DNA of 64,000 nt. Origin: a virus. The position numbers were made by a program, and so were the translations under genes. This document shows, one piece after another, positions 3,354-20,163 of the stretch. Position 1 is the stretch's first letter. Each line of letters starts with the position of its first letter. The stretch lies in the IMG/VR virus record IMGVR_UViG_3300030012_001865, positions 1 through 64,000 of that record. One strand, written 5' to 3'. Under the pieces are notes generated by a model, which searched no databases, had not been told where the DNA came from, and saw only the letters and a program-made list of their open reading frames with translations.

Positions 3354-4520
3354 TTATTTTAAATTAACTTGTAAATATCCTTCACATCCTGTTTCTTTAT
3401 TCCATATATAAGCTTGAGCTTCTCTAGGAGCATTGTACCCCATTGTTTTATGCCAAGCATCATTAGTACATATACTAGGTAAGAATCTTACTTTTATACC
3501 ATGATACGTATTAACTATCTCTCTATGCTGATGTCCGCAGTGCACCTCTCTATTAGGACACTCTGCAAACATAAGTGGCTGTTCTGTAGCCATAAGAAGC
3601 GGCATCTGTGCTGGCTTCTCTTTGTCTCCATGCGTAAACATTAGCATATTCTTTCCGTATCTGTAATATTTTCTTGAGTCATAACTGTTGTCTACTGTTA
3701 TAAACTCACAGTCTCTATACCAAGATTCTATTACTTCTCCTATATAAAACATACGTTCAAAGTCATGGTTACCTTGGATTACTATTACATCTACAGGTGC
3801 AAATGCAGATAGGTAATCTATTGCTGTAACTAATAACTTCCAGTATCCTCTAAAGGTCTGTTGCCATTCTTCAGCATCATGCTGTGGCGTGCCTTTAGTA
3901 GTAGCTCTACTATAACCTTCAGAGTTTAGCCCATCGTTACCAATAGGCAGTATAAACTTTTCTATGTTTAAACCTTTAGCTCTTCTGTGCAACTCTTTAA
4001 TAGTATTTAAAAAGTCTAGATTAGCCTGCTCTTGTGTTACAGAACCTATCTTACCATAATGAAAATCAGGTAAAGATATTTCGTAAGCTACAGGAGATCC
4101 CTCTTTAGCTGCATAGTTGGGTACAGCTACTTGCGGGATATACTGTTTCATTTCTTCAAAGAACTCTTTCTTAAACTCAGTAAGATCAGTTTTATTTTCT
4201 TTTGTTACAATAGAAAATCTGTATTCTCCTGAGCCTGACTGCCAGTGCTTTACTGACTGTACATCTTTTTTATCTATCCCTCGCTCTTTAAGATGCAAAT
4301 CGAGTTCGGGTATGTTAGGAACTATTTCTCCTACATCTTTAGTTTCATTAGTATTGCAATTAGTATCTACCCATTGATACCCTCCTGCATACTTTCTGCC
4401 TCCAAGACCTTTTATAACTTTATAGATATTACTTTTATCAATACCTAAAGCCATCGCAGCTTCGTGAGCAGTTGAGAATTCATCTACAAGATTTCCTTCT
4501 CTATCTAACTGTTGTATCAT
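3354..4520 (-). CDS. Calcineurin-like metallophosphoesterase with N-terminal NUMOD1-like DNA-binding domain
   Basis: Motifs DFHYG, GND, GNHD, HGD, GHQH; N-terminus QQLDREGNLVDEFSTAHEAAMALGI...KYAGGYQW. Confidence 0.85.
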   Translation of the reverse strand: MIQQLDREGNLVDEFSTAHEAAMALGIDKSNIYKVIKGLGGRKYAGGYQWVDTNCNTNETKDVGEIVPNIPELDLHLKERGIDKKDVQSVKHWQSGSGEYRFSIVTKENKTDLTEFKKEFFEEMKQYIPQVAVPNYAAKEGSPVAYEISLPDFHYGKIGSVTQEQANLDFLNTIKELHRRAKGLNIEKFILPIGNDGLNSEGYSRATTKGTPQHDAEEWQQTFRGYWKLLVTAIDYLSAFAPVDVIVIQGNHDFERMFYIGEVIESWYRDCEFITVDNSYDSRKYYRYGKNMLMFTHGDKEKPAQMPLLMATEQPLMFAECPNREVHCGHQHREIVNTYHGIKVRFLPSICTNDAWHKTMGYNAPREAQAYIWNKETGCEGYLQVNLK

Positions 4521-4903
4521 TTTTTTCTAATTTTTTCTATACTCCTTCCAGCAAAATACGCACCGTACACGGTGATTAATAGTGTCTGGTAGATAGGAAT
4601 ATAAGCTGGAGATATAACAAATTCTCCTAAATTCCCATCAAATATAGAAATAATTATGAACATTGCTGTTAAAAAGATACAAATCAATGGTCTAATATTC
4701 TTACTAAGCCAGTTGTCAGACTTCATGTCAGCCTCCCAACGACGTGTTACTTGTTCTTGCCCTTTAGCTTCTGCGTCTAATAAAATTTGTTTCATCATAC
4801 GCTTTGCTTCCATACGCTCTTCATCTGACGTACTTAGTTTATCTACTACGTCTCCAATCTTCTCAATGGTGTTACCACCTAAAAAACTTAATAACTTACT
4901 CAT
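4517..4903 (-). CDS. Holin (3TM/GTA-holin-like)
   Basis: RWEADMKSDNWLSKNIRPL followed by two hydrophobic helices and GAYFAGRSIEK; adjacent to the endolysin. Confidence 0.8.
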   Translation of the reverse strand: MSKLLSFLGGNTIEKIGDVVDKLSTSDEERMEAKRMMKQILLDAEAKGQEQVTRRWEADMKSDNWLSKNIRPLICIFLTAMFIIISIFDGNLGEFVISPAYIPIYQTLLITVYGAYFAGRSIEKIRKK

Positions 4904-5373
4904 TAAAGTGCTTTTATATTATCACTTGCATGTCTATAAGCTGTTTTACCTTGATCGTTTTTATAAGCTTCTAGTACTTGCTTTCTATTCTTACCTGGGC
5001 TTAATGATACATGTATCCAAGCAAAATCAAATTCATTTATTAATTGATCAAACTCTAATCCTGAGTCTAGTATCCAATCATACATGACTTTATTATTCAT
5101 TTGCCCCTCTTTCCAAAACTGCAAATCCATTGCTTGGCCTTTACAGTGTTGCGAGCGGCTGCTTCCTCCGATAGCACGATTAAGTTTCGGACTGCGATAA
5201 CCACTAGTAACACGGATAGGACCGATAGCATCCCGCATAGGCTGAATAAGCTCAGTAACGAGCGTTTGCAGATTCGCCAGATGTTCTTTTTCTGGTTCAT
5301 TACTTATTCCTTTTCTTCTTGCTGTATTGCTTCGAGTCATCTCAGACAATACAAAGTTTTTACTTAGTCTCAT
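4903..5373 (-). CDS. Endolysin, peptidase M15A family
   Basis: SGYRS..LN.AIGG...SQHCKGQAMD and WIHVS zinc-ligand motifs. Confidence 0.9.
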   Translation of the reverse strand: MRLSKNFVLSEMTRSNTARRKGISNEPEKEHLANLQTLVTELIQPMRDAIGPIRVTSGYRSPKLNRAIGGSSRSQHCKGQAMDLQFWKEGQMNNKVMYDWILDSGLEFDQLINEFDFAWIHVSLSPGKNRKQVLEAYKNDQGKTAYRHASDNIKAL

Positions 5374-5382
5374 AATTTAAAT

Positions 5383-5718
5383 TTAAAATGCTTCCATTAC
5401 AATTTCATCTATAGAGTTCTGAACTTCACTTTTAGTAGCCTCCATAGTCATCATAATATTTGCTTGAAATCTTTTTACTTCTTCGTTATTGTTAAATATT
5501 ACAATAGTAGGTACAACTACTATTTTGTATTCTTTAGACCATCTTGCATCTGCTGTTATATCAACTCTTTCTACTTCACAATCTGTAAGCTTAGGTAACC
5601 AAGCTACTTCGTTAGCTTTATTGAAACTAGCATTAAACTCAACTGCAACCATTCCGTCAGGAAAGTCTTGAGCTAAAGCACTAGTGCAAATACAAAATAA
5701 AACAAATAGTTTTTTCAT
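5383..5718 (-). CDS. Exported thioredoxin-fold protein lacking CxxC
   Basis: Signal peptide MKKLFVLFCICTSALA|QD; VAVEFNASFN where Trx has VxFxAxWC; EYKIVVVPTIVIFNNNEEVKRF cis-Pro strand. Confidence 0.7.
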   Translation of the reverse strand: MKKLFVLFCICTSALAQDFPDGMVAVEFNASFNKANEVAWLPKLTDCEVERVDITADARWSKEYKIVVVPTIVIFNNNEEVKRFQANIMMTMEATKSEVQNSIDEIVMEAF

Positions 5719-5724
5719 AAGATA

Positions 5725-6009
5725 TTATTTTAAGTCATCTATCTTTTCCTCAAGGCGTAGCATATGTCCTTTAATTTCTTTTACATCATCTTGTGTTGTC
5801 ATAATAGTTTGACGTATCAACTGATCTTTCATGTCATACTCCATACGAGTAATCTCTGGATCTGGCGGTTTAGGTAATTCTTTTGCCTCTGATATATCTG
5901 ATTGTAATGTAAACCACATACCTACAAGAGTAAAGATTAACACTGCTATGCCAGCTAATGTTTTTATACTCAGTTTTAGAGTTGTGTCTTCATTTATTTC
6001 TTTTGCCAT
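5725..6009 (-). CDS. Single-pass membrane protein with C-terminal coiled coil
   Basis: Hydrophobic LAGIAVLIFTLVGMWFTL, Pro-rich hinge, heptad DVKEIKGHMLRLEEKIDDLK. Confidence 0.75.
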   Translation of the reverse strand: MAKEINEDTTLKLSIKTLAGIAVLIFTLVGMWFTLQSDISEAKELPKPPDPEITRMEYDMKDQLIRQTIMTTQDDVKEIKGHMLRLEEKIDDLK

Positions 6010-6012
6010 CTG

Positions 6013-7050
6013 TTAAAATATTACATAGTTAATACCGACACTAAAGTTGTGCCATCGTCGGTTCCAATATTTATTATATCTACCTTCTACAAATACACCT
6101 AAACTTTTATTAAATCTGTATCCGTAAATAAGTCCTGCCGAGTAATCTAACCACTGTCCGTTATTAAACTTGTGGTAAGAGTATGTGTTATCTGTATCTA
6201 TATGATACGGCATAATGTTACCCCAGCTGTGAAACCAAAAGTCTTTTGTAAAATGATAGTAATCAAATCCTAATACTGCAGAGTACTCTACTATATTAGA
6301 TAGAGCACTTCTTTGTTTTTCTACATAGTCATCTATTACTTGAGGTATAACAACCTCTTCCCAAACTTCTTGACTAGTTGCTACTACCTCTCCACTGGGT
6401 GCTGAATACTGTCCATCTAATGTTATAGTGTATCCCTCTTGAAGTGCCAAGTATGTATAGTGTAATGTCCCATTGTCCAGCACCCAGTCTGCTAAAGGGT
6501 CAAAACCGTATGGTTCTGCAAGACGCTGTACTGCACCTACGTTTACAGATAGTTTACCTGTCTCACCTATTTGCAATCTAAATCTTTCTGATGCTTCAAA
6601 GTATTTTATATCTGCAAAACCATCTTCTAGATACTCTACTTTACTTACCCACTTATCAGCAACGTATCTTACAAAGTGATGTTGGTTAGTAAAGTTAACA
6701 CCTAAACGACGTACAAAATCAGCCTCGAATAAATACTCAAAGCCATCGACTCTACCAATGGTGGCAGCATCACTGTATGAATTTTCTGTACCATTATAAA
6801 AAGTAAGAGCCCTGTTTTCATAGCCAAATCGTTTTATTTTTCTTATACCTATAGATAATGTATAATCAAAAGGTGTTTCTATTGTTTGTTCTTCTAGTGT
6901 ACCAGATGTAACAGACCATATTTGATCATCACCTAATGATGTACCACCATTAACTGCAGCATAAAATGTAGAGTATTTAAATATTTTATGTAACCCTTGT
7001 GCATTTCCTAATAAAGGAATAAATAATAATAATATTAATAGTCTTTTCAT
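6013..7050 (-). CDS. Putative outer-membrane beta-barrel protein
   Basis: Signal peptide ...LLGNA|QG; many alternating aromatic amphipathic strands; C-terminal FSVGINYVIF resembles a BAM beta-signal. Confidence 0.75.
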   Translation of the reverse strand: MKRLLILLLFIPLLGNAQGLHKIFKYSTFYAAVNGGTSLGDDQIWSVTSGTLEEQTIETPFDYTLSIGIRKIKRFGYENRALTFYNGTENSYSDAATIGRVDGFEYLFEADFVRRLGVNFTNQHHFVRYVADKWVSKVEYLEDGFADIKYFEASERFRLQIGETGKLSVNVGAVQRLAEPYGFDPLADWVLDNGTLHYTYLALQEGYTITLDGQYSAPSGEVVATSQEVWEEVVIPQVIDDYVEKQRSALSNIVEYSAVLGFDYYHFTKDFWFHSWGNIMPYHIDTDNTYSYHKFNNGQWLDYSAGLIYGYRFNKSLGVFVEGRYNKYWNRRWHNFSVGINYVIF

Positions 7051-9281
7051 TTCTTTAATACTTTTGTAGTGCTTGTATTACCATCATATGTTACACTAAA
7101 ATTATATATACCTGCAGGTAGTAAACTTACATCTAATTGATTTAATCCTTTTGTAGTATGTTTTTCTTTAACTTGTATTACAAGTTTACCTGATATATCA
7201 TATACCTCTATACCTACAGGACCGTTTGTTAATATGTTTAACATATCACCCATAGGATTAGGATACATAACTATATTGTGCCCTCTTAGTAAATCTCTTG
7301 TATCTAATGGACTATCCCAAGAACAACTCCAATATATTTGTTGACATTTGTCATCCCATTCGTTATTACAACAATAAGGATCTATCATAATAACCCAAGC
7401 GTAACATGTATCATTTAGCCAGTATGGTATACCAGGTCCATCAATACAGCCTGCATCATATAAACACTCTGCTTCTGTATTAGCAAACACATCGTAGTTA
7501 TAAGCACTTGCATCCATACAACCTTCTACTATTAACTCACACTCATCTTCAGCATTAGCTAGTGGATCATAATTAAACGCTGTACTATCCATACAGCCAT
7601 ATATAAATGGTACACAACTAAAATCTTCTGTATTAGCCTCTTCATTATAGTTAAATGCTTCTGGGTCAGTACAACCTAGAACTGTAATAAAACAAGAACC
7701 ATTATCAACGTTAGCTATAGGATCATAGTTATCAGCTAAAGTATCCATACAACCAAAATACAAACAAGACCCGTCTTCTGTATTAGCAGCAAAGTTATAG
7801 TTCCATGCTATTTCATCCATGCAACCAACAACTACTGCTACACAACTTTCGTCATCTACATTAGCAAGTGAGTCATAGTTAAATGCGAAGGGTGAGGTAC
7901 AACCTTCTACTATTTCAATACAAGAACCGTCATCGGTGTTTGCGTCAGAGTTATAGTTCAAAGCTTGTTCATCCAAGCACCCGTATACTTTAGGTATGCA
8001 ATAATCTCCACAAAATGGAAGAGCATTGTACACATACCAAAACGGCGGCTTGTAAGGTTTAAGTGCTCCCTGCCCATTATTAGAAAATGGGAACACACCA
8101 CCTTGAAGTGTTACATCACCGTTTGAGTTAATAAGTCTAAATGAGTTATGCATAGTCTGGAATGCAACTTCTGCAGGAGGAGTTTGCGGACTAGCTATTT
8201 CAAAGTAATATACTTTAACAGGTTTATCTGTTTCTAGTGTTATACCAAACTCTTGTGAGTAAGAGCCAGGTCCCATAGTATATGTACCAAGAATACTATC
8301 TTCTTGTACTACACCTATGTAGCAATCACCCCAACCGTCACCACCATCATCTTCTATAACAAGAGTGTAGTTACATGTAGGTACAATTTCGTTTAGTGTA
8401 GCTTGTGGATTAAAGTTAAATGCATTAGGGTTTATACATCCTAGTGTGTGTAATGTTTCACAGCTGCCATCATCAAAGTTAGCGCCTGGGTTGAACTCTA
8501 TATATGTATTGTTAGTACAACCTTCTACTATAGGTAAATCACATTGCTCTAACCATATAGGGCCAGAGTATGCAGCGTTACCAAAACCTGGTTCTGGTAA
8601 AGCCCATAGTGTGTCTAAACTACCACATGGTTCTGCATCACCAAGTATAATAAAGTCTCCATCTGTACCACCGAACAAAGATCCTTCTAAACCGTCACCG
8701 TATGTATCACTTAGTATAAGTTCTACACCTGTTTCAGGTACACATAAATCATATATAATAGTTTGATTAGCTTCTTCATAAGAATACTCACCAGCTGTAA
8801 CACTTTCTACAGGTTGTCCGTTAGACAGATCTGTTAGTATCCAACCTGTCTCACCAGGGTATTGATCTAGTGTAAGTTTAAAAATCATTTTAGCTTCTCC
8901 GTCAGAGCAGCTTATACCTACACAGCTGTTGTCATCAACTTGCGCCCAAGGATTAAAGTTAGGCGCCTCTGGGTTAGTGCATCCAAATACAGGATACTCA
9001 CATGTACCATCATTAAAGTTTGCTTCAGGTACATAGTTTAAAGCCAACATGTCTGTACAGCCTGGTACAGTATCTATAGGTAATGGGCAGTCTTCTGCAT
9101 CATACCCAAACTCTTCACAGTTAAAATCTATTACGTTTCCGTTCCATGTGTATGAACCGTCATCGCAAAAACCATCACCTAACCAAGCAGTAGGTGCAAC
9201 TGTTCCAAAGCAATCTAGAATAGTATCTTGTGCTGTAACTGTTAGACTTAAAACTAGAAATAAATAAAGTAATTTTCTCAT
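7047..9281 (-). CDS. T9SS (type A CTD) secreted Cys-repeat surface protein
   Basis: Signal peptide ...LTVTA|QD; LNR/Notch-like module WLGDGFCDD...NCEEFGYDAEDC; ~11 GCxD/N..A.NY...A..DDGSC repeats; C-terminal YPNP...IEVYDISGKLV...LDVSLLPAGIY...KVLKK. Confidence 0.88.
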   Translation of the reverse strand: MRKLLYLFLVLSLTVTAQDTILDCFGTVAPTAWLGDGFCDDGSYTWNGNVIDFNCEEFGYDAEDCPLPIDTVPGCTDMLALNYVPEANFNDGTCEYPVFGCTNPEAPNFNPWAQVDDNSCVGISCSDGEAKMIFKLTLDQYPGETGWILTDLSNGQPVESVTAGEYSYEEANQTIIYDLCVPETGVELILSDTYGDGLEGSLFGGTDGDFIILGDAEPCGSLDTLWALPEPGFGNAAYSGPIWLEQCDLPIVEGCTNNTYIEFNPGANFDDGSCETLHTLGCINPNAFNFNPQATLNEIVPTCNYTLVIEDDGGDGWGDCYIGVVQEDSILGTYTMGPGSYSQEFGITLETDKPVKVYYFEIASPQTPPAEVAFQTMHNSFRLINSNGDVTLQGGVFPFSNNGQGALKPYKPPFWYVYNALPFCGDYCIPKVYGCLDEQALNYNSDANTDDGSCIEIVEGCTSPFAFNYDSLANVDDESCVAVVVGCMDEIAWNYNFAANTEDGSCLYFGCMDTLADNYDPIANVDNGSCFITVLGCTDPEAFNYNEEANTEDFSCVPFIYGCMDSTAFNYDPLANAEDECELIVEGCMDASAYNYDVFANTEAECLYDAGCIDGPGIPYWLNDTCYAWVIMIDPYCCNNEWDDKCQQIYWSCSWDSPLDTRDLLRGHNIVMYPNPMGDMLNILTNGPVGIEVYDISGKLVIQVKEKHTTKGLNQLDVSLLPAGIYNFSVTYDGNTSTTKVLKK
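7460..7985 (-). repeat. Tandem block of 7 GCxD..A.NY..AN.DDGSC coding repeats
   Basis: Visible in the translation; units about 24-26 aa, diverged at DNA level. Confidence 0.85.
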
Positions 9282-9463
9282 TTCTTTTTTCGTCTAGTAG
9301 TTCTTTTCTTTGCTGGTCTTTTCTTTGCAGTCTTTGCAGCACGTTTAAAGTTAGCCGCTGTAGGAGCTCCCTTGCTCCCAGGCTTTCTCATTTTTTCTCC
9401 ACTACCTGCTTTTATTCTTTTTCTTTTAGCGTGGATGTTTGCGTATAGTCCTCGTTTTGCCAT
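9278..9463 (-). CDS. Small very basic protein
   Basis: 61 aa, MAKRGLYANIHAKRKRIKAGSGEKMRKPGSKGAPT...; K/R-rich with almost no acidic residues. Confidence 0.75.
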   Translation of the reverse strand: MAKRGLYANIHAKRKRIKAGSGEKMRKPGSKGAPTAANFKRAAKTAKKRPAKKRTTRRKKK

Positions 9464-9467
9464 AATC

Positions 9468-9680
9468 TTATTTTTTAGCGAATTTTTCTACACCTGAGAT
9501 TCCAAAACAGCCAAGCACTACCCATACAAATGAATCATATACAAACTCATTTATTACAAGGTCAGCGCCTACCCATCCTGTTACTAGATCAGCTACCATA
9601 ATCATACACATAACCGCAAAGGCTATAAACCCTACGATAGCTTTTTCATTCCAGTTGTTGTTGTCTTTAAAAATTTCCAT
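9468..9680 (-). CDS. Small two-TM membrane protein (holin-like)
   Basis: 70 aa, two hydrophobic helices, ends GISGVEKFAKK. Confidence 0.7.
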   Translation of the reverse strand: MEIFKDNNNWNEKAIVGFIAFAVMCMIMVADLVTGWVGADLVINEFVYDSFVWVVLGCFGISGVEKFAKK

Positions 9681-10248: not shown

Positions 10249-13200
10249 TTAACATGTTCTACAATATTCAGCATTACATAAAGCTGATAATTTTTCTTTA
10301 TACTTTTCATATTTAGTTTGATTCATCTCTTCTTTAGAAGCTATCAATCCTTTATATAATGCATATATTTCTAAAGCTTCATCCGCTTGTTGGCTTTCAC
10401 AATTAGAGAGGTCTAATGCAAATAACTTTTCTTGTACACATTTTAAGAATACCCCTTCTACACAAGATCCATCATCAACTGTAGCTAATGGATTATAGTT
10501 AGAAGATGTTCTATCTGTACAGCCGTATACTTCGTTTTTAATCTGGAAAGGATAAGCTTTTATAGATGAAGTATTGTAAGGATAAGTTATTATTCTAGAG
10601 TATAAAATTATTCCGTTTTCATCTATAATTTCAAATTTATAAGAACCGTTTACTGTAGATCTAGTTGGTTGAGTGTTTCTACTTCCTACAACAAACTTGG
10701 ACATTAAAACATATCTATCATATCCTTTTACAATAATGTATTCGGTTGCAATTGAATCATCAACCAAATCGTCATTAGATATATCAGCAACTATTTTACT
10801 AGACTGCGCATCTACAATACGAATAGAATTACCTCCAGTTAAACTTAAAGTTTCGCCTGGCTCAGTTGAAATCTTAAACATAATTTTAGTACTTGCATCA
10901 TTATCTAAACTAGTTGCAATATTACATCTAGGAGAATCTACAAAAGTAATACCTTCTAATCCACATCCTACACTACAGTTTGGAGAGTTTGGATTAGTTG
11001 TAAAAGTATTATCAGACCCTAAGTTTAATAAAGTTCCTGTTCCTAGTCCAGTAGCTCCATAGTAAATACTGTGAAGTATATTAGTACCATTTCTAATATT
11101 GATAGTTACATTTTCAAATCTAGGATGTTGTTCAAATCCAATAGGTAAGAAATAGTAACATCCTGAACCTTCTAAAGTATCATAGTAAACTTTAGAATCA
11201 TCTTGTGTTTCCATATATTCACCTAGTGTAGGATCATACTGTCTAGATAAAACCACAAGGTTATCATGATTATATATAATCCATTCTTGAGGCATTATAG
11301 TTGAAGAGTAATTATTAAAATTATATCCATTAATTACACTGTCTCGATATATAGTCTCAATATTAAATCCTGTTTGAACCTCTGTTACAGGCTCTATACA
11401 TACTGTATTTGGATCAGTTAAGTACTGACAGTATTGACACTCAGGTGCTTCGTTTACATAACTTAAAGCTTGAGGGTCACAACATACTGGAGTCTCTACC
11501 ACATTAAAACAAGGAGGGAATTCGCATTCATATCCTGTAGAAGAACATTCTTGGCACGGTCCTAAATTTGCAGGATCTACACCATTTAAAGCTTCTGGGA
11601 AATCAGTGCTGCAACATACCTGCTCTAACTGAGGAGGACAGAACTCACACATATCTTCAGAAGGATAACAATCTAAAGTATCTTGAGGTGCTGACATGTC
11701 TAAAGTTTGTGTAGCAGGATCCCAGTTAGGACACTCTGATAGTTGTTGCAAATTATAGTTAAGAGCGTTAGGATTTGTACATACAGGTATACTTGGAATT
11801 TCTTCTTCATCACAAAGTCCATCACAATCAGCATCTCTATTACCGATACAGAATGCATTGGATACATCTATCTCAGTTGCTATTTGCACACCTGCCTCTG
11901 CAGTATTATATATAACATAATAAACAACTGATAAATGAACTCCATTAGGTTCAGCAGCCCATACGGAATGATCATCTACATGATAAACTGGTTCATATAA
12001 AGTTATACCAGGCAATGGGTAAACGTCCATATCGTAATTACCAGTGGTTTGATCATACTTTAATTCTCCTACTCTTCTCATCTCAAAGTTTAGTGCATTT
12101 GGACAACTTTCACCTGGTACATGAACATCTCCATAATTTGGATGCGCTGGATCTGGAATCATTGCTTCAGCACTTCTTGTTGAATGTATCATAAAGTTGA
12201 CACTTTCAGAAGTCCAACCAGTACCATCCGATATAGCTCTTTCTCCTGTTCTAGGATTTAAAATTATTAGACTTGTTGCTCCTGCAGGTAAATTAACTGC
12301 TGCTTGCTGGAACATAGTATGGACTGGATAACCTGATGCTCCTCCTCTAAATATTCCAAAGGATGGATTAAACTGGTCGTTCTGTTCCGTACTATAAAAC
12401 ATTCCATCTTCTCTTACTTCAAAAGCAACAACGTTGTTACTTGTAATATTATTACTAATAGCTCCATAAGTAGAAGAAGTTATTGTCTCGTCAATTTCAG
12501 ATCCATCAACTTCATAGTCATGGAAGTTATGAGCATAGAAAGGAGGATAGAAATAAATTCTTGTTTGAGATAGACCACCATTTATTTCTGGGAAAGGAGA
12601 TAGACGCTGAACCATTCCTTCAAAGTGATCAAACTTATTATATCTACCTACGTTACCACCAAAGATAAAGTAACCAGGAACAGGTAATACTTTATTAACA
12701 TCTTTTTCAATATCAAATACATTAACCATAAGATTAGTCCAAACATCAACATCGCTTCTAAACTCATTCCAACGGTACATGCTTCTAACTCCAAACATCC
12801 AATTCTTATTATTATCAATTCCCCAATCTTGAGGAAAGAAAACATCTACAGATCCGTCTACTAAACCATCTCCCCAATAAATAGCTGCGCCACATAGTGA
12901 GCTTCCACCATTATTATATACAAAATCATCGCATGTTGGCCACTCGCCTTCTACTTCATACTGACAAGAACCATCATCAACATTTGCCAAAGGGTTGTAA
13001 TTTAAAGCGTCTGGGTCCATACAACCTGGAATAGGCATAATACAAGAACCGTCATCTACGTTAGCTAGTGGATTGTAATTTATTGCCTCAGGATTTGTAC
13101 AACCATAGATAGGTTCAAAATCATTTTCACAAGAACAAGTATCTCCAACTACTGTTGGGAATAATTGATTACCAAATTCATCAAGACCACACTCTACTCC

Positions 13201-16200
13201 ACAACAAGGATCTAATTGCATACAGCCTCCATTACAAGAATTTGTACTTTGGTTTACACACGAAAAACATTCACCATATACGTGAGGACAAGCCTCAGCA
13301 TTAGTTAAATGTACTCCATCGACAATTACAGCTACTCCCTCATCATAGGCTAACTGTTGACAATATGAAGTATAGTCACATGAACCATCATTTATTGTAG
13401 CAGTAGGATCGTAGTTACATGCTGCTGGGTCTGTACATCCTGCACATGATTCGTAATCACACTCACACGGATGTCCTTGAATAGTAACAAAACTAGGAGT
13501 CTGAGGATGACCGCCATCACCAGGAGGAGTTCCTGGATTAATCACATACTGATTACATTCATAAGTGTGCGCTGGATCATAGTATTGACACGAGTTAGGG
13601 TCTGTACAACCATAACAAGAATAATCACAGCAAGAACCGTCTTCACATTTTACAGGAACAACCCCTTCAGGAATTACTACGTTATCACTTTGATAATAAT
13701 TACAAGCAAAAGAATCAAAACAAAAGCCTTGTTCGTTATATTCACAACAATCAGGATCGCAAGGAATAGTCGCATTAGGATCATAATTTGTTGCTAACGG
13801 ATCCATACAACCTTTACAATATCCCTCTTCTAAGCCTGTACCCCCTCCAACACATCCACATCCTTGCGGGTCGTCGTAAGCAGGTGTACCATTAAGATCA
13901 TTTACACAATCTCCATTACAGTCAAAGAAATAATCAAATTTATTACCATACTGATCTTCACCTCCACAATCACATTGTACTTGATCTTCCCAAGTTGTTA
14001 TACCTGGATAGAAAGTATTGTTTACTGCTATATAAGAATTATGCGCTACTTCCGAATTAACACATGCACCAGTACAATAGTCTAGGAAAGGCTGAGTATT
14101 GAACATACCTGGCGGTACATACGGACTATAACCCGCTCCTGCTGGATTGGTGTTTTGCCATTGAACACCTGTATTAGGATAACACTGTCCGTCACACCCT
14201 ATGATATGATTACAAGGATCGTATGATCCTGTTTGATTATTACCAATACAATAATCACATGGGTTAGGACCGTTTGGATCTGGCTCAAGAACATAGCACA
14301 TTGCTGGATATGAACAAGCTCCGTACTGAGTCCCTATAGAGCTTATTAGATTCGCCAGATATGGATGATCACAAAGAAATGTTGCCGTATCTGGATTTCC
14401 AAGACCATCTCCATTTGCATCTAAATAGAATGTCGATACTGTACAGTCAGCACAATACATTGGATCTCCAGGACATTTTCCTGCACAATCTTCTTCAGCC
14501 TCTGAACAGTTAACTTGTTTAAGTCCTGTAAGAGCAGAGTGATCTAATCGTCCCCATTTCTGTCCGCTTCTAGTATTGTCTGGTATAAGTATACCAGTAG
14601 TAGCGTCTTCATTGTAAGCACAGAAATATCTTGGTTCTGTAGACATTCTAAAAGCGTCTTCTGTTACATCACTATAAGTAATTTCTCCTGAATCGTTTAT
14701 AGAAGCTGTTTGATAAGTGTAGTCAAATATTTCATGGTACAATCTAAGTAAAGATGATGTTTGAGAAGGGTCTGTGTTAGTTGGAAGACTAACACCGCAA
14801 TCACAATAATATTGGCCCTCAGGTGATCCATTAACTTCACTATAAGAAACGCCCGAACTAGGAACTACAAAAGCTGGATCAATAGTTCCTTGTATAACTT
14901 CTATTGTTTCTCCGTCTATAGTATATATATCTGTTAAAGTTGTATCATAATTACATCCGCAAGGCGTACTTACATAGACTGCTCCTTCACAATCACAATA
15001 GACGCTTGCAAATTCTGGTTTAACATCAGTTGAATTACATTCACAATATGTAGGTTGTGGTGTTCCGTTGCAGTCGCAGTAACCTAACATAGGAGTGTTG
15101 TTTTGTGCTCCGTCGCATTCACACGTAGGTCCTTCTGGAGATTCACATAATGTCGCATCAAAAACAATAGTAGACCCTTCAGGTAACCCTTCTGGGGCAA
15201 CATAATTACAAGCAGCACTATCTCCACATAATCTAAATTGACATTTACTATTGTCAATAAGTGCAGCAGGAAAATCAGGATCTTCTACAGAACTATCATA
15301 ATTATGTGCTAATGTATGTCCGCAAACACTACATGAATAGTTCCATTCAGCACTGTCTGGTTTCATACAAACTCCACATAAATCTCTTCTGTTTCCTGTA
15401 CCACACCCACAGTCATCATAGTTATATACACAAGAGTTATCATCTATATCAGCTTGAGGATTATAATTACAGGTTAGGTATCCAGCATCTGGATTTCCAG
15501 GATCGGTACATCCATATATTATAATTTCTTGATTTGTTATCTCTCTTACATTATATACAACAGGATTAAAAAATTGCTGATAAACATTTATTTCTGGACT
15601 ACTTGTGTCCCCATCCCATCCAAAAAGAATGTCACCATTGTTTTGTTTATATGTATTCCAATCAGAAGCAAAAGTATAACTATTTAAATTATAGCCTTGA
15701 ACTGTTCTTGAAATACCTCTACCTATACTTCTTTCAGTTTCTATAATTTTTCCTAAAGTAGGAACATATCCTGCAGTTGAAGAAATTAGAATATCTCCAG
15801 CTGCATCTTTAAATATTCCAGAAACCCATATATTATTAAAGTCATTATTAAATGCATTAGTACTAGAATTTGCGTTAACGTTTAACCCAAAATAATTAGT
15901 TTCTTGGGTTGGGTCTATATCGTCTATAGCAAAATGCTGTCCAGCAATAGAACCAAGCTCATAGTCAGCCCCTCCTATATTAACAACTTCAGTAAGGTAA
16001 CAATATATACCAGTACCAGCTAATGTATTTGCCTCAATGTCTTCTATAAATGCAGTAAAATCAAATTTTAAAATTCTATTAGCTACAGGAATAGCGGCTT
16101 CCATTGTAATTGCTAAACTGTTCCCTGAAGAATTAGTATATTTTCTTCCTGAGTAAGTAGTTTCAACTAAAATTATATACTGACTACCGTCTTCTGCTAT

Positions 16201-19200
16201 TTTAGAAAATACAGCATCTGTATATAAAGCACTGTTGCCATAATTTGCACCTATAGTTGTAAGGTCATAATTTATACCGCAACTTCTAGTAGGTGTTACA
16301 TTGTGGTATATAAGTTCTCCAGCGTTTGTATTTTTATTACCGCCAGGATAACCTTGCATACCCCAATCACCATTACTTGCTATACCATTATTAAGATAAT
16401 CTATTTTATTATCATGTACACCTGGTGAAATATCACAAGCTTTATAATCATATAAAAGTTTTAAATTTGAAAATCCTGTTCGATCGAGAATTTCATGTAT
16501 AAATATTCTACCTTTCCAAATAGTAAACATATGTCTACTATCTTCACTAATAGTAGTAAAAGTATTTTGCATTTGGTTTTTATCCCACAATCTGTGAACT
16601 TCGCTCTCACTCCCTTCTAAGCGAGGAAAATTTAATCCGTCACTATATATAGGTCTTGAAGGATCTGAGAAAGGGACCATAATACCTGTTACAGTTCCGT
16701 TGTCAATGTAAAATACTTTTAATTGTAAAGTACCATTAAAACCTTCTATATACTTTTTACGACTTCCTCCACCATCGTTAAGACTTGCATACCGTTCTCC
16801 AGGGTAAGATCCTAAACAAAATGTTAGAGCTCCTACATAAGCTCCATCCGCAGCAGTTTTTGGAAAATTAAATACATTATAAAAGTCTTCATTTACAAAA
16901 CGATCTTCTCCTCCTTGAGCTTTAAGATCACGGCTAGGGCCTCCACCTAAACCTGTAAAATTACTACTTACTTTACTGTCGTCATTAGCTGGTGTAAAAT
17001 ATTTTTGGCCATCAGCTACTCCTGAAAGAAGTAAATTATTATTATTAAAAATACATTGGGTATCACTAACAGCGGTACCTTTCATAAAATCTATTTCAAC
17101 TGCTCTAAGTTGAGTTCTATTATAAGTATCCTGATTAAATCCTTCACCTCCGAACGTGTGTAGAAATATAACAACTCCTTTACTTGCTCTTGAGTCAAAT
17201 CCAAATGCAATATTTTGTTGGGTATTTCTTAAACCACTTATATATACTTGGTCCTCGCTAACATCAGCAATACTACCATTTATATATGTACTTGGGTCAT
17301 ATGCTATAGCAGGACTGTTAGGGTTCAAAGGCACCTTACTAGCCATAGATGTTCGATATATTTCGCTACCTGTTCTATCAAATATAACTAAGTCTCTACC
17401 GCCTCTTCCAGTAAAATCGTAAGCTGAATAAGTTAGTATATGATCAAATTCAGAGCTACCTAAACATGTTTCTGTTTCTTCACTAGGAACCGCAAGAGGA
17501 TCACAAATACGTTGCTCTTGAACTATAAACAGCCCATTACCCGCGTCATCTGTAAGTATTCCACTTTGTAGCATTTTTTCTCTATGCCCAAAAGCAGATA
17601 ACTCATTAGTTTTATTTATAGAGTACCCTGCTATTCCTGGCATACCATACTCATGAGTAATATTACTTAATGGAGTAAATGATTTAAAAGAGTATTCACT
17701 ATCAGTGTGATCTATACGTTCTACAAGTTTATCAGGGAAAACAAATTTATTAACTCTTCCGTAGGCACTAAAAGTTGTAACTACGTCAAATAAATTTGGA
17801 AGTTGGAATTCTGGATCTAGCAGCAGTACATTTTCTAATAAAGGAAGTTCTACTTTATTTTGTATAGCTTTTAAATCTAAATTAACTCCAGTAGAATTAT
17901 ATAATAAAGATACAGTAGAATCTAATAACGTTGCACTTAAAGTACTATTCATAGAAGCAGCTACTAAAGCATTTCCTTTCATAAAAAAGTTAGGTTCTAC
18001 ACCAGCACTATTAGAAAGTTCTATAATACTTTCAAGTATATTGTCTATAGGTAATATTTGATTACCTTCTTTAATTGTATACTTATATACTTTATTAAAC
18101 TCATCTACTGGGTCATATGCAATTACAAACATATATTGACCGCTTCTAGAAAATTCAATATCTATCGGGCTTCTATCGATTCCATCAGTACCTAAGCCGA
18201 CAGGAAGATGTTCTAAATATCCTAAATGTGTATCTCCTATAGAGTTTTCTGCATAATTACTATCAAAAGTATTAGGAACAAAAGTACACTGTACCCTATC
18301 CCATTCCATAAGAATAATACCCCATTGAGTAGTCATAGCTACTAAACCAAATCTAGAAAGCTCATCTTGTATAATAAATTTTGTAAAAACAGCACCATCT
18401 ATACCTTCTTGAGCTACATTAGTATCTAAAAGTTTAGTTGTAGGGTTCCATTTTTTAGTTTGTATATCAGATATTTGAGTAAACCCTTTATCTCCTGTAA
18501 AAGGAAATTCATATATACCCCAAGAGTTATCAAATGTTGCAGAGTTATCACTATCTGGATAAGCATCTTTATCTCCACTAGAAGTTACTTGGTAATTTTC
18601 ATACTGTTCTACAGTCAAAGAATCTATCTCAGCATTTCCACCGTATAATGGAAGTTGTTCAGAAATATCTAAATTACCAGAAATATTCATAATTACTAAC
18701 TCTTTCCTATTGTTAATAATTACTGCAGAATATCCTGTATTTACAAAAGAGTGATGTTTAAAAGTTACAAAAGCAATGTTAGAATTAGTTGCGACAGCTG
18801 CAGAGTTTTGATCTTTTCCTTCTATATTTAAAGAAAGCTCTGTGTCATCTAACTTATAAGAACTAAATTCAGAAAAATTACCAGAAGCAGATCCAAGAGC
18901 GTCATCACAGGGTTGTATAACTTCTCCATTATCTAAATAATTATCGCGCTCTGTAGATAATTTAAATATTCCTAAATTAGGAAGTTCGTTAGTATTAGAA
19001 TAATAAGTACTTATTACTAAAAATTCTTTATCATTTAACTTAGCTCCAACTAAATCTTTTGAAACTAAGTCAGAAGTATATGTAAATTGTTCTCCATAAC
19101 TATGAGGAGTTCCTGTAAATGTAGGTATAGATGTGTAACTACTATTAAGTTTATAACCAAGAACATCAGTAAAAACTAGTCGTTCTGTATTAGTTTTATA

Positions 19201-20163
19201 AATATAAAATTTAGGACCTGCTGAATTTAAAATCATACTGTTAGTATAAACTTCTTCTTCAAGTCCATTTGTAACTACACCAGATATAAAGGTTTGAGGT
19301 TTTATAAATCTTCTTTCTTGAACATTTAATAAACCTCCTAAATTTAATATACATAAAGTATTGTATCTAGAAAAAGTAGAATACTGATCTGCTGCTGATC
19401 CTGACGCTAGTTCAGCTATAGCAATAAGATTCTCCTCGTCTATCTCATCTCCTAGCCCCCAGTTGCCTGTAGTAACATCAGTGTCGGTAAGATCTTCGTT
19501 AGATAAATCACCATGAACTACTATAAATCCGTCTCTACCATATATACATTCTAACTGTATATTTAAATAGTGATCTTCACTAAGATATGATCTTGTAAAA
19601 ACACCGTTATTTAAATGCGCATTATAGAGTTTTATAAAAGGAGTGTTTAAATTTGATAAAGACATTAAAGAATTAATACCTGTTGCAAGATCTCTAAATC
19701 CTAACTGTACTCCAATATTATATAAGAGTCTTGTAAATAACGGAGATGCTGCACATGCCGATTGTGATAATTTACACCACGAGTACTTACCTGAAATAAA
19801 ATGCGTCCCATCGTTAAATAGAACTTCTGGAAGCTCTTTATTATCATTAATATTAAAAATAAACTCAGCTTCTTCAGCACTAAAAACTTCTACAACAGTT
19901 ACTCTTAAGTTAGCTGCAAATCCATTTGAAGTTTTATACTTAGTTGAAAACAATAAAGCCCATTGATTAACAGCTTGTTGAATTTCTAAATTAATGTAAG
20001 AAGAATCTACATATTCATTCTCATTAACACTATGATCTATAAAATATGAGAATATGTATTCGCCATCTTCTCCATTTTGAACTGTGTGTATCTTATCTAA
20101 TAAAGGTATTAATACTCCAAAAGAATTAGCTTTACACTCTATTATAGGATTTCTTTTTGCCAT
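10249..20163 (-). CDS. Giant 3,304-aa putative virion appendage protein: degenerate matrixin-like N-terminus, propeller-like region, Cys-rich repeats, C-terminal Cys/helical domain
   Basis: Single uninterrupted ORF with no signal peptide; YNIGVQLG...SLM...IQLECIYG; about 10 GCTD..A.NYNP.A..DDGSC-type repeats plus DCxG repeats; ends LCNAEYCRTC. Confidence 0.8.
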   Translation of the reverse strand: MAKRNPIIECKANSFGVLIPLLDKIHTVQNGEDGEYIFSYFIDHSVNENEYVDSSYINLEIQQAVNQWALLFSTKYKTSNGFAANLRVTVVEVFSAEEAEFIFNINDNKELPEVLFNDGTHFISGKYSWCKLSQSACAASPLFTRLLYNIGVQLGFRDLATGINSLMSLSNLNTPFIKLYNAHLNNGVFTRSYLSEDHYLNIQLECIYGRDGFIVVHGDLSNEDLTDTDVTTGNWGLGDEIDEENLIAIAELASGSAADQYSTFSRYNTLCILNLGGLLNVQERRFIKPQTFISGVVTNGLEEEVYTNSMILNSAGPKFYIYKTNTERLVFTDVLGYKLNSSYTSIPTFTGTPHSYGEQFTYTSDLVSKDLVGAKLNDKEFLVISTYYSNTNELPNLGIFKLSTERDNYLDNGEVIQPCDDALGSASGNFSEFSSYKLDDTELSLNIEGKDQNSAAVATNSNIAFVTFKHHSFVNTGYSAVIINNRKELVIMNISGNLDISEQLPLYGGNAEIDSLTVEQYENYQVTSSGDKDAYPDSDNSATFDNSWGIYEFPFTGDKGFTQISDIQTKKWNPTTKLLDTNVAQEGIDGAVFTKFIIQDELSRFGLVAMTTQWGIILMEWDRVQCTFVPNTFDSNYAENSIGDTHLGYLEHLPVGLGTDGIDRSPIDIEFSRSGQYMFVIAYDPVDEFNKVYKYTIKEGNQILPIDNILESIIELSNSAGVEPNFFMKGNALVAASMNSTLSATLLDSTVSLLYNSTGVNLDLKAIQNKVELPLLENVLLLDPEFQLPNLFDVVTTFSAYGRVNKFVFPDKLVERIDHTDSEYSFKSFTPLSNITHEYGMPGIAGYSINKTNELSAFGHREKMLQSGILTDDAGNGLFIVQEQRICDPLAVPSEETETCLGSSEFDHILTYSAYDFTGRGGRDLVIFDRTGSEIYRTSMASKVPLNPNSPAIAYDPSTYINGSIADVSEDQVYISGLRNTQQNIAFGFDSRASKGVVIFLHTFGGEGFNQDTYNRTQLRAVEIDFMKGTAVSDTQCIFNNNNLLLSGVADGQKYFTPANDDSKVSSNFTGLGGGPSRDLKAQGGEDRFVNEDFYNVFNFPKTAADGAYVGALTFCLGSYPGERYASLNDGGGSRKKYIEGFNGTLQLKVFYIDNGTVTGIMVPFSDPSRPIYSDGLNFPRLEGSESEVHRLWDKNQMQNTFTTISEDSRHMFTIWKGRIFIHEILDRTGFSNLKLLYDYKACDISPGVHDNKIDYLNNGIASNGDWGMQGYPGGNKNTNAGELIYHNVTPTRSCGINYDLTTIGANYGNSALYTDAVFSKIAEDGSQYIILVETTYSGRKYTNSSGNSLAITMEAAIPVANRILKFDFTAFIEDIEANTLAGTGIYCYLTEVVNIGGADYELGSIAGQHFAIDDIDPTQETNYFGLNVNANSSTNAFNNDFNNIWVSGIFKDAAGDILISSTAGYVPTLGKIIETERSIGRGISRTVQGYNLNSYTFASDWNTYKQNNGDILFGWDGDTSSPEINVYQQFFNPVVYNVREITNQEIIIYGCTDPGNPDAGYLTCNYNPQADIDDNSCVYNYDDCGCGTGNRRDLCGVCMKPDSAEWNYSCSVCGHTLAHNYDSSVEDPDFPAALIDNSKCQFRLCGDSAACNYVAPEGLPEGSTIVFDATLCESPEGPTCECDGAQNNTPMLGYCDCNGTPQPTYCECNSTDVKPEFASVYCDCEGAVYVSTPCGCNYDTTLTDIYTIDGETIEVIQGTIDPAFVVPSSGVSYSEVNGSPEGQYYCDCGVSLPTNTDPSQTSSLLRLYHEIFDYTYQTASINDSGEITYSDVTEDAFRMSTEPRYFCAYNEDATTGILIPDNTRSGQKWGRLDHSALTGLKQVNCSEAEEDCAGKCPGDPMYCADCTVSTFYLDANGDGLGNPDTATFLCDHPYLANLISSIGTQYGACSYPAMCYVLEPDPNGPNPCDYCIGNNQTGSYDPCNHIIGCDGQCYPNTGVQWQNTNPAGAGYSPYVPPGMFNTQPFLDYCTGACVNSEVAHNSYIAVNNTFYPGITTWEDQVQCDCGGEDQYGNKFDYFFDCNGDCVNDLNGTPAYDDPQGCGCVGGGTGLEEGYCKGCMDPLATNYDPNATIPCDPDCCEYNEQGFCFDSFACNYYQSDNVVIPEGVVPVKCEDGSCCDYSCYGCTDPNSCQYYDPAHTYECNQYVINPGTPPGDGGHPQTPSFVTIQGHPCECDYESCAGCTDPAACNYDPTATINDGSCDYTSYCQQLAYDEGVAVIVDGVHLTNAEACPHVYGECFSCVNQSTNSCNGGCMQLDPCCGVECGLDEFGNQLFPTVVGDTCSCENDFEPIYGCTNPEAINYNPLANVDDGSCIMPIPGCMDPDALNYNPLANVDDGSCQYEVEGEWPTCDDFVYNNGGSSLCGAAIYWGDGLVDGSVDVFFPQDWGIDNNKNWMFGVRSMYRWNEFRSDVDVWTNLMVNVFDIEKDVNKVLPVPGYFIFGGNVGRYNKFDHFEGMVQRLSPFPEINGGLSQTRIYFYPPFYAHNFHDYEVDGSEIDETITSSTYGAISNNITSNNVVAFEVREDGMFYSTEQNDQFNPSFGIFRGGASGYPVHTMFQQAAVNLPAGATSLIILNPRTGERAISDGTGWTSESVNFMIHSTRSAEAMIPDPAHPNYGDVHVPGESCPNALNFEMRRVGELKYDQTTGNYDMDVYPLPGITLYEPVYHVDDHSVWAAEPNGVHLSVVYYVIYNTAEAGVQIATEIDVSNAFCIGNRDADCDGLCDEEEIPSIPVCTNPNALNYNLQQLSECPNWDPATQTLDMSAPQDTLDCYPSEDMCEFCPPQLEQVCCSTDFPEALNGVDPANLGPCQECSSTGYECEFPPCFNVVETPVCCDPQALSYVNEAPECQYCQYLTDPNTVCIEPVTEVQTGFNIETIYRDSVINGYNFNNYSSTIMPQEWIIYNHDNLVVLSRQYDPTLGEYMETQDDSKVYYDTLEGSGCYYFLPIGFEQHPRFENVTINIRNGTNILHSIYYGATGLGTGTLLNLGSDNTFTTNPNSPNCSVGCGLEGITFVDSPRCNIATSLDNDASTKIMFKISTEPGETLSLTGGNSIRIVDAQSSKIVADISNDDLVDDSIATEYIIVKGYDRYVLMSKFVVGSRNTQPTRSTVNGSYKFEIIDENGIILYSRIITYPYNTSSIKAYPFQIKNEVYGCTDRTSSNYNPLATVDDGSCVEGVFLKCVQEKLFALDLSNCESQQADEALEIYALYKGLIASKEEMNQTKYEKYKEKLSALCNAEYCRTC

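Follow-up and report, generated by a model that had tools for sequence, protein, structure and literature searches.

Two kinds of described phage system come closest to the locus presented here, a set of four genes in the uncultured virus IMGVR_UViG_3300030012_001865. The first is the Rz/Rz1 spanin pair of lambda, which is encoded in the lysis cassette and combines a small inner-membrane protein of type II, whose periplasmic domain is helical, with an outer-membrane partner that is a small lipoprotein. About 15% of phages have no recognisable spanin, and a known substitute, disruptin (phiKT gp28), is a single small cationic peptide (bioRxiv 10.1101/515445). The second is the phage-encoded type A cargo of the T9SS (type IX secretion system), already published among the variable genes of the 'Cryophage' (Bellas et al. 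2020, PMC7468147) and as T9SS-domain open reading frames (ORFs) in gut crAss-like phages (de Jonge et al. 2019, PMC6949934). The available text of these two papers reports no linked trio of barrel, membrane protein and thioredoxin.

The window analysed here is the first 64 kb (positions 1 to 64,000) of the virus record, which is 94,285 bp long and rated complete in IMG/VR. It belongs to a tailed phage, with terminase, portal and major head protein genes, and the major head protein (33263-34714, minus strand) shares 33-35% identity with crAss-like phage capsid proteins across 99% of its length and has weaker matches to Flavobacterium and Cellulophaga phages. We treat the source as an uncultured marine crAss-like phage of Bacteroidota, placed near Crassvirales; the host assignment follows from the capsid match together with the T9SS sorting domain and the signal-peptide rule described below.

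A first-pass annotation of the window had described the genes at 5383-9281 as a T9SS cargo, an outer-membrane beta-barrel, a membrane coiled coil and an exported thioredoxin-fold protein, and had read them as one undescribed envelope complex in the infected cell. The observation is confirmed and the interpretation as a whole is partly supported. The annotated stretch stops just short of an M15 endolysin and a holin, which belong to the same gene run and mostly travel with the barrel, 94-aa and 111-aa genes (the trio). From the comparison of loci, the trio is a conserved core and the cargo a variable, clade-specific addition. The trio may act at, or control, the envelope step of lysis, with the cargo as a clade-specific surface accessory, a reading that we put forward tentatively, as somewhat short of probable; we place the trio at that step because of its gene neighbourhood and predicted topology.

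Organization and distribution of the gene set

The four genes and the lysis genes that follow them are, in the order of the run:

7047-9281, minus strand: 744-aa T9SS cargo (Sec signal at nt 9231-9281; PF18962, TIGR04183)
7050-7268, minus strand: type A T9SS C-terminal sorting domain, cargo residues 672-744 (PF18962, TIGR04183)
6013-7050, minus strand: 345-aa predicted outer-membrane beta-barrel (signal peptide at nt 7000-7050; AlphaFold2 model)
5725-6009, minus strand: 94-aa single-pass membrane protein (transmembrane residues ~17-35, nt 5905-5961)
5383-5718, minus strand: 111-aa exported thioredoxin-fold pseudo-enzyme (signal peptide at nt 5671-5718; profile search)
4903-5373, minus strand: 156-aa Peptidase_M15_3 endolysin (PF08291, 65.8 bits; phrog_894 endolysin, E 8.6e-38)
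4517-4903, minus strand: 128-aa holin (phrog_3427 holin, E 1.7e-27; PF11351 GTA_holin_3TM, 27.5 bits)

As first described, the four module genes are contiguous and co-oriented on the minus strand; in gene order, the first two overlap by 4 nt, and gaps of 3 and 6 nt follow. The tight packing runs unbroken from the cargo gene to the holin: the endolysin gene begins 9 nt past the end of the 111-aa gene, and its own end overlaps the start of the holin gene. The module is thus the upstream part of a run leading straight into the lysis cassette.

Searches with the barrel returned 331 relatives among 50%-identity cluster representatives (E <= 0.001) and at least 3460 in a larger metagenomic collection, the latter all on contigs of at most 154 kb and none of them named or with a Pfam domain. 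In IMG/VR, at least 120 contigs carry close barrel relatives and at least 96 more belong to a second clade (P0013-like); at least 170 viral contigs with the trio were retrieved for comparison. Scanning 185,579 species genomes for close relatives gave no match, and no isolate chromosome was seen to carry the barrel family; a motif scan of the same genomes gave 13 loci, all on short contigs of metagenome-assembled genomes (MAGs) assigned to unrelated taxa, and probably phage contigs mis-binned into them. The module-bearing GTDB MAG contigs (L082-L091) are labelled Pelagibacter, Nitrosopelagicus, Parvibaculum, Woesearchaeota, Rickettsiales and Maricaulis; because module loci in MAGs are probably binning errors, host assignments taken from those MAGs would mislead. 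Among the INPHARED phage records, neither the DNA nor the barrel nor the 94-aa protein has a relative; matches of the 111-aa protein are to generic thioredoxins only, and the cargo is matched once, weakly, in its repeat region. None of the three core genes occurs in a cultured phage of that collection.

The 94-aa and 111-aa genes lie near the barrel in all 76 eligible loci of the window's clade, where the 94-aa gene usually starts 3 nt past the barrel, and both recur with the barrel in three further clades. A protein with a T9SS C-terminal domain (CTD) is found within 5 kb of the barrel in 43 of the 44 eligible loci of the window's clade. The module genes are thus, as far as these comparisons reach, phage-specific and old, and the passive recent capture from a host that the first-pass annotation had set as the alternative is ruled out by their wide, phage-only co-occurrence. 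The P0013-like clade keeps the barrel, 94-aa and 111-aa genes, together with a 70-aa gene found upstream of the cargo in the window, and has a CTD protein in none of its 41 eligible loci. The slot beside the barrel is filled there, in 46 of 46 loci, by an exported, unrelated protein of 180-266 aa; two of these neighbours were checked and had no Pfam domain and no Pfam CTD. This protein (loci L095-L174, for example L097:8056-8775) follows the barrel and has a signal peptide that obeys the Q-rule (Gln at +1) and a C-L-x-C motif near its N-terminus. In that clade it may take the functional place of the cargo or be a fourth member of the core.

The position of the cargo gene itself varies: it is upstream of the barrel in close relatives and follows the 111-aa gene in those more distant. 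Median identities to the window's proteins within the close clade are 88% for the 70-aa protein, 84% for both the barrel and the 111-aa protein, 80% for the 94-aa protein, 77% for the holin, 70% for the endolysin and 67%, the lowest value, for the cargo. The set splits in two because the trio is kept without the cargo in the second clade, the cargo switches side and the cargo evolves fastest.

These observations bear directly on the idea that all four proteins form one multi-layer envelope complex, centred on the T9SS cargo and displaying a phage protein on the infected cell. In such a complex the barrel would anchor or shuttle the cargo, as PorP/SprF or PorV do, the thioredoxin-fold protein would chaperone the cargo's Cys-rich domains in the periplasm and the 94-aa protein would tie the whole to the inner membrane. 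We consider this unlikely, and the single T9SS-centred complex of the first-pass annotation was not supported by the comparison: the second clade keeps the trio without a CTD protein in 41 of 41 eligible loci, and the side of the cargo relative to the trio differs between close and distant relatives. In its favour, the four genes stay together in nearly all loci of the window's clade (43/44), the cargo stop overlaps the barrel start, and the cargo-less clade fills the slot with another exported protein (46/46), so that the trio could be a general export platform.

Three predicted envelope proteins

Signal peptides were called by a hydropathy rule (basic N-terminus, hydrophobic core, small-x-small followed by Gln), which bore out the three Sec signals with Gln at +1 that had been noticed earlier, with cleavage sites TA|Q at residue 18, NA|Q at residue 18 and LA|Q at residue 17 of the 744-, 345- and 111-aa proteins, respectively. 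The Gln is kept in the great majority of homologues of all three exported families, and fits the Q-rule of Bacteroidota (PMC10367356, citing its reference 46). By the same hydropathy rule these three are the only convincing signal peptides among the 151 ORFs of the 94-kb genome, and a scan of the whole genome found no ORF with a plausible lipobox. A canonical outer-membrane spanin (o-spanin) is therefore missing from the genome, since no ORF has a plausible lipoprotein signal. The 111-aa protein had been considered as a lipoprotein, via Cys9 or Cys11 of the window's copy, and was rejected as such because these cysteines are not conserved in the family. The targeting signals, the sorting domain and the barrel model agree with the proposal that the proteins are addressed to the host Sec, beta-barrel assembly machinery (BAM) and T9SS pathways.

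The AlphaFold2 model of the 345-aa protein, built from an alignment of 29 relatives, contains 14 strands and a helical insert (predicted local distance difference test, pLDDT, 78; predicted template modelling score, pTM, 0.70). Its top structural matches in Foldseek and VIA searches are outer-membrane barrels, namely CymA (Z 11.0), EstA (10.3) and OmpG (9.7), NanC being matched by Foldseek at E 1.7e-5, and no single barrel family stands out. The protein has no Pfam match at E <= 0.1, PorP_SprF (PF11751) included, and falls in no family of Pfam, NCBIfam or PHROG. Aligned family members share the C-terminal pattern G-x-N-Y-x-[IF]-F. With its signal peptide, even number of modelled strands and C-terminal beta-signal, the protein is predicted to be an outer-membrane beta-barrel and BAM substrate, in line with the earlier description.

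We read the barrel topology from the strand order of the model, assuming the usual periplasmic N- and C-termini. The best-conserved motif of the family, G-[VIL]-R-K-[IL]-A-R-F-x-Y-E at residues 68-78, then falls where strand 4 is predicted to meet the periplasm, ahead of a 30-residue loop that is poorly modelled. The helical insert (residues ~185-250), the site of large length differences in the family alignment, would be extracellular. The model thus suggests a conserved periplasmic interface and a variable exposed face.

We also considered an enzymatic barrel of the OMPLA, LpxR or PagL type. The idea was prompted by the near-invariance of S257, H274 and N341, and all three enzymes occur among the structural matches (Z 6.6-9.3); by strand position, Ser257 and His274 lie at opposite ends of neighbouring strands.

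A comparison with PorV and PorP/SprF is invited by an outer-membrane barrel of similar size encoded beside a T9SS cargo gene, and SprF-like genes adjoin their type B cargo genes. The neighbouring cargo here is of type A, however, and the barrel, which has no PF11751 match, also occurs in clades without the cargo. The presence of PorV chains among the structural matches speaks for a display complex, but the likeness is generic: 6h3i_F (Z 7.8, against 11.0 for CymA) ranks below several unrelated barrels and 8gl6_F is at Foldseek rank 19, no better than other barrels of 12-14 strands. Furthermore, we know of no type A cargo in known systems that needs a dedicated barrel gene.

The 94-aa protein has one hydrophobic segment by hydropathy (around residues 17-35), after which come a conserved LP.P..P linker and a C-terminal domain that is helical and probably periplasmic. 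The single transmembrane segment of the proposed membrane coiled coil was thus recovered, and the coiled coil itself is plausible, the matches of that type over the C-terminal 59 residues being non-significant (E 0.07-0.3). Mean column identity of the protein is 62% across loci whose barrels share just ~35% identity. Profile and library searches found no Pfam family and no relative of known structure or family; there is a weak match to phrog_736 (E 0.004), and the ESM Atlas gave a weak lead to DUF2730 (score 0.83), to be taken as a lead only; ESM Atlas searches otherwise gave viral, unnamed clusters only.

The single sequence of the 111-aa protein scores 22.4 bits against Pfam Thioredoxin, just below the cut-off of 23.5, and a profile of 17 homologues matches thioredoxins of the PDB at E 1.3e-10 to 1e-5. 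The protein is therefore assigned a thioredoxin fold by profile, as had been proposed. The position of the CxxC motif reads F/W-N-x-x-N, with N33 and N36 nearly invariant, and the V-V-P-T cis-Pro loop is retained; the family alignment contains no CxxC and no conserved Cys, including near the cleavage site. Retention of the cis-Pro loop and loss of the active-site cysteines are shared with redox-inactive thioredoxin-fold proteins. The 111-aa protein differs from these by its export with a Q-rule signal, its conserved NxxN, its restriction to phages and its constant pairing with the 94-aa protein. A Cys-rich cargo beside a thioredoxin-fold protein is suggestive of the chaperone role supposed in a display complex, yet the 111-aa protein has no cysteines for disulfide chemistry.

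Association with lysis genes

Lysis-type genes were defined as those for an M15 peptidase, an Amidase_2 endolysin, DUF5675 or a holin with three transmembrane segments, and a flank of 3 kb was required on each side of the trio span, leaving 108 loci. In 90 of these 108 a lysis-type gene lies no further than 3 kb from the trio, and 64 have a peptidoglycan-hydrolase-like gene at 300 bp or less. Chance would give about 10%, a rough estimate for a 6-kb neighbourhood and one lysis locus per genome of 60-95 kb. The hydrolase beside the trio varies, being M15 in the window, PG_binding_1 plus Amidase_2 in L085 and L180 and DUF5675 in L017, L123 and L130. The adjacency is kept in four gene orders: (i) barrel-94-111-endolysin, (ii) endolysin-barrel-94-111 (L086), (iii) 94-111-barrel-endolysin-holin (L177) and (iv) a dispersed arrangement.

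DUF5675 genes are seen near the trio where an M15 endolysin is absent, in 15 of the 108 loci (for example L123:11843-12313, L017:11504-11986 and L130:6166-6645). DUF5675 has been proposed as a C82-like lysin on structural grounds alone (bioRxiv 10.64898/2026.04.11.717860) and would, if truly a lysin, be a third endolysin type beside the trio.

Could the shared position simply reflect unrelated accessory genes (morons) that settled in a variable region and have no joint function? The region between tail and lysis genes does take other inserts in relatives, SNase-type nuclease genes and small repeated proteins among them. However, the trio stays joined down to ~35% barrel identity, through four gene orders and ~170 loci, and its members are more conserved than the endolysin, so that we regard this explanation as highly improbable.

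A working model for the trio at the envelope step of lysis can be sketched as follows. The three proteins would be expressed late, together with the lysis genes, whose tightly packed run they share, and would settle in the inner membrane, periplasm and outer membrane. After removal of the peptidoglycan by holin and endolysin, the trio would breach or destabilise the outer membrane, or would control this step, doing the job of the Rz/Rz1 spanin pair of other Gram-negative phages, which is absent from the genome. The 111-aa protein may serve as a non-catalytic adaptor through its retained cis-Pro peptide-binding loop, the 68-78 motif at the predicted periplasmic strand end of the barrel may be the docking site, and the 70-aa protein, with two predicted transmembrane segments (2-TM), often accompanies the trio. 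In its most specific form, which we think possible and more doubtful than the general placement at lysis, the trio would be an unknown, three-part, lipoprotein-free spanin substitute, combining a BAM-inserted barrel with a catalytically dead thioredoxin in marine Bacteroidota phages that form a large and abundant group, crAss-like ones included.

The likeness to Rz/Rz1 lies in the small inner-membrane protein, of type II and with a helical part that is probably periplasmic, the encoding in the lysis cassette and the outer-membrane partner, in a genome that has no other candidate for the outer-membrane step. The differences are considerable: the partner is a 14-strand beta-barrel and not a small lipoprotein, there is a third, soluble member of thioredoxin fold, the periplasmic domain of the 94-aa protein is much shorter than that of Rz, the trio is better conserved than its endolysin, and no sequence similarity was found. 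With disruptin the trio would share the use, by a spanin-less phage, of a different protein for outer-membrane disruption, and differ in being a protein set over three compartments.

Several points weigh against placing the trio at lysis. The link comes from gene neighbourhood alone; the end of a structural operon is a general site for accessory genes and the adjacency could mean shared late timing instead of a common function. No recognised lysis gene lies within 3 kb in 18 of the 108 loci. The periplasmic part of the 94-aa protein, ~59 residues, is too short to span the periplasm by itself. Typical spanins evolve fast, and the trio is unusually well conserved (80-84% against 70% for the endolysin). 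We know of no precedent for a lysis device whose partner in the outer membrane is a beta-barrel. Finally, the cargo is near-constant in the window's clade and its gene is translationally coupled to that of the barrel by a 4-nt overlap, making a functional tie between the two possible there.

A regulatory role was weighed as well, in which the 94-aa protein, perhaps with the 70-aa protein, would control lysis timing by regulating the holin or endolysin in the manner of an antiholin or releasin, with envelope signals supplied to it by the barrel and the thioredoxin-fold protein. Small single-pass and 2-TM proteins beside a holin are typical of lysis regulators, the DUF2730 lead points the same way, and the strong conservation of the 94-aa protein would be expected if it binds a conserved partner. 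This version nonetheless leaves the outer-membrane barrel without a role and is accompanied by no significant sequence or profile match to a known regulator; we judge it improbable.

The predicted secreted protein

The type A CTD that had been recognised earlier in the 744-aa protein was upheld by profile searches: the sorting domain scores 46.3 bits against TIGR04183 (type A; cut-off 23) and 48.2 bits against PF18962 (cut-off 27), in both cases over residues 672-744, the extreme C-terminus. PF18962 was also passed by six of the eight cargo homologues tested. The protein consists of the signal peptide, a Cys-rich N-terminal domain, repeats, two beta-sandwich domains, a Cys-rich C-terminal block and the sorting domain, with 39 cysteines in all. 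The repeat, GC.D...NY....[ND]..D.SC, is ~21 aa long and present in at least 8 copies (8 by the strict pattern). Residues 18-450 were modelled by AlphaFold2 with a pLDDT of 76, and the sandwich domains gave weak matches to Ca-dependent carbohydrate-binding module (CBM), C2 and PLAT domains (Z 5-6.7); fold searches with the central domains found nothing above Z 6.7, and 'lectin-like' is accordingly a weak label. A borderline match to AMPK1_CBM (27.3 bits; cut-off 26.8) is seen in one homologue. Searches of the cargo revealed no catalytic domain. Homologues range from 641 to 1325 aa in dozens of variants.

The cargo would be exported by Sec and fold in the periplasm, where the ~38 cysteines of the mature chain are presumably in disulfides; the type A sorting domain would then hand it, via the host T9SS, to the cell surface or the medium. 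Phage-encoded T9SS cargo is a previously reported phenomenon of which this is a further member (PMC7468147, PMC6949934). The claim of an undescribed system was thus too broad for the cargo and stands for the trio, of which we found no description in the literature. Like the published cargoes, this one is encoded by a phage of Bacteroidota, carries a Sec signal and a type A sorting domain, varies greatly among related phages and would presumably be exported through the host T9SS; it differs from those of the Cryophage, which are enzymes or PA14 proteins, in its non-enzymatic Cys repeats and beta-sandwiches. Its features fit an accessory, surface-exposed binding protein under diversifying pressure, a reading we base on the lack of a catalytic domain, the Cys-bounded repeats, the sandwiches with weak resemblance to sugar-binding domains and the highest variability in the block.

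The large virion protein upstream in the run, of 3304 aa and signal-less, bears two canonical repeats of the cargo type (GC.D...NY...DDGSC) at residues 2354-2400. From its sequence, the same repeat module would be used inside the cell, in the virion, and in an exported protein, which fits a shared binding or spacer module.

The repeat common to cargo and virion protein can also be cited in favour of superinfection exclusion or receptor masking, in which the exported proteins would alter or cover the host surface and keep further phages, or progeny virions that meet cell debris, from adsorbing. The cargo being the most variable gene, with weakly CBM-like sandwich domains, and the long predicted external loop of the barrel, which varies in length across the family, agree with such a role. 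Exclusion genes usually act early, however, and the position of these genes at the end of the structural operon implies late ones. PADLOC gave no match for six proteins, and exclusion would explain neither the persistent adjacency to three kinds of endolysin nor the high conservation of the inner-membrane and periplasmic members. We hold it to be quite unlikely, somewhat more so than the display complex. Of the roles suggested in the first-pass annotation (superinfection exclusion or receptor masking, adhesion of infected cells and jamming of the T9SS), none is favoured by the present results.

Neighbouring genes

The minus-strand late run reads, in order, the 3304-aa virion protein, small genes, the four module genes, the M15 endolysin, the holin and further genes. 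The genes upstream of the cargo are:

10249-20163, minus strand: 3304-aa giant virion protein (no signal peptide; 129 Cys)
9468-9680, minus strand: 70-aa small membrane protein with two hydrophobic segments, of holin-like size (hydropathy)
9278-9463, minus strand: 61-aa very basic protein (phrog_16028, E 2.7e-31)

Of 52 eligible loci, 42 have the 70-aa gene no more than 4.5 kb from the barrel, and the gene also occurs in the cargo-less clade; Pfam and PHROG scans gave no family for its product. The 61-aa gene, which in the window lies between the 70-aa and cargo genes, has that place in just one related locus, and looks like a mobile small insert.

Two further kinds of gene recur around the module in relatives. 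SNase-type genes (PF00565, checked for L123) gave 22 matches among the loci, in or beside the module (L078:9002-9361, L083:2277-2630, L104:9016-9369 and L123:10759-11175), one of them sitting between the barrel and 94-aa genes. Small paralogues of ~120-135 aa starting MA(T/K)..T.T..S... are found near the module in many relatives, sometimes in tandem (for example L003:9685-10053, L078:13176-13580 and L097:11975-12343); the one checked has no Pfam family.

Conclusions

The cargo adds a well-populated example to the few published phage uses of host type IX secretion, and T9SS cargo could mark the hosts of Bacteroidota phages in marine viromes. Our literature searches found no description of a late phage-encoded beta-barrel in the host outer membrane and no account of the outer-membrane lysis step in marine Bacteroidota phages. 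Should the placement of the trio at lysis prove wrong, the locus would remain a conserved instance in which a phage of virulent type inserts a beta-barrel of its own into the outer membrane of its host late in infection. The trio is a concrete and abundant candidate for the outer-membrane lysis step in marine Bacteroidota phages and, if it does act there, would explain how at least these apparently spanin-less phages complete lysis.

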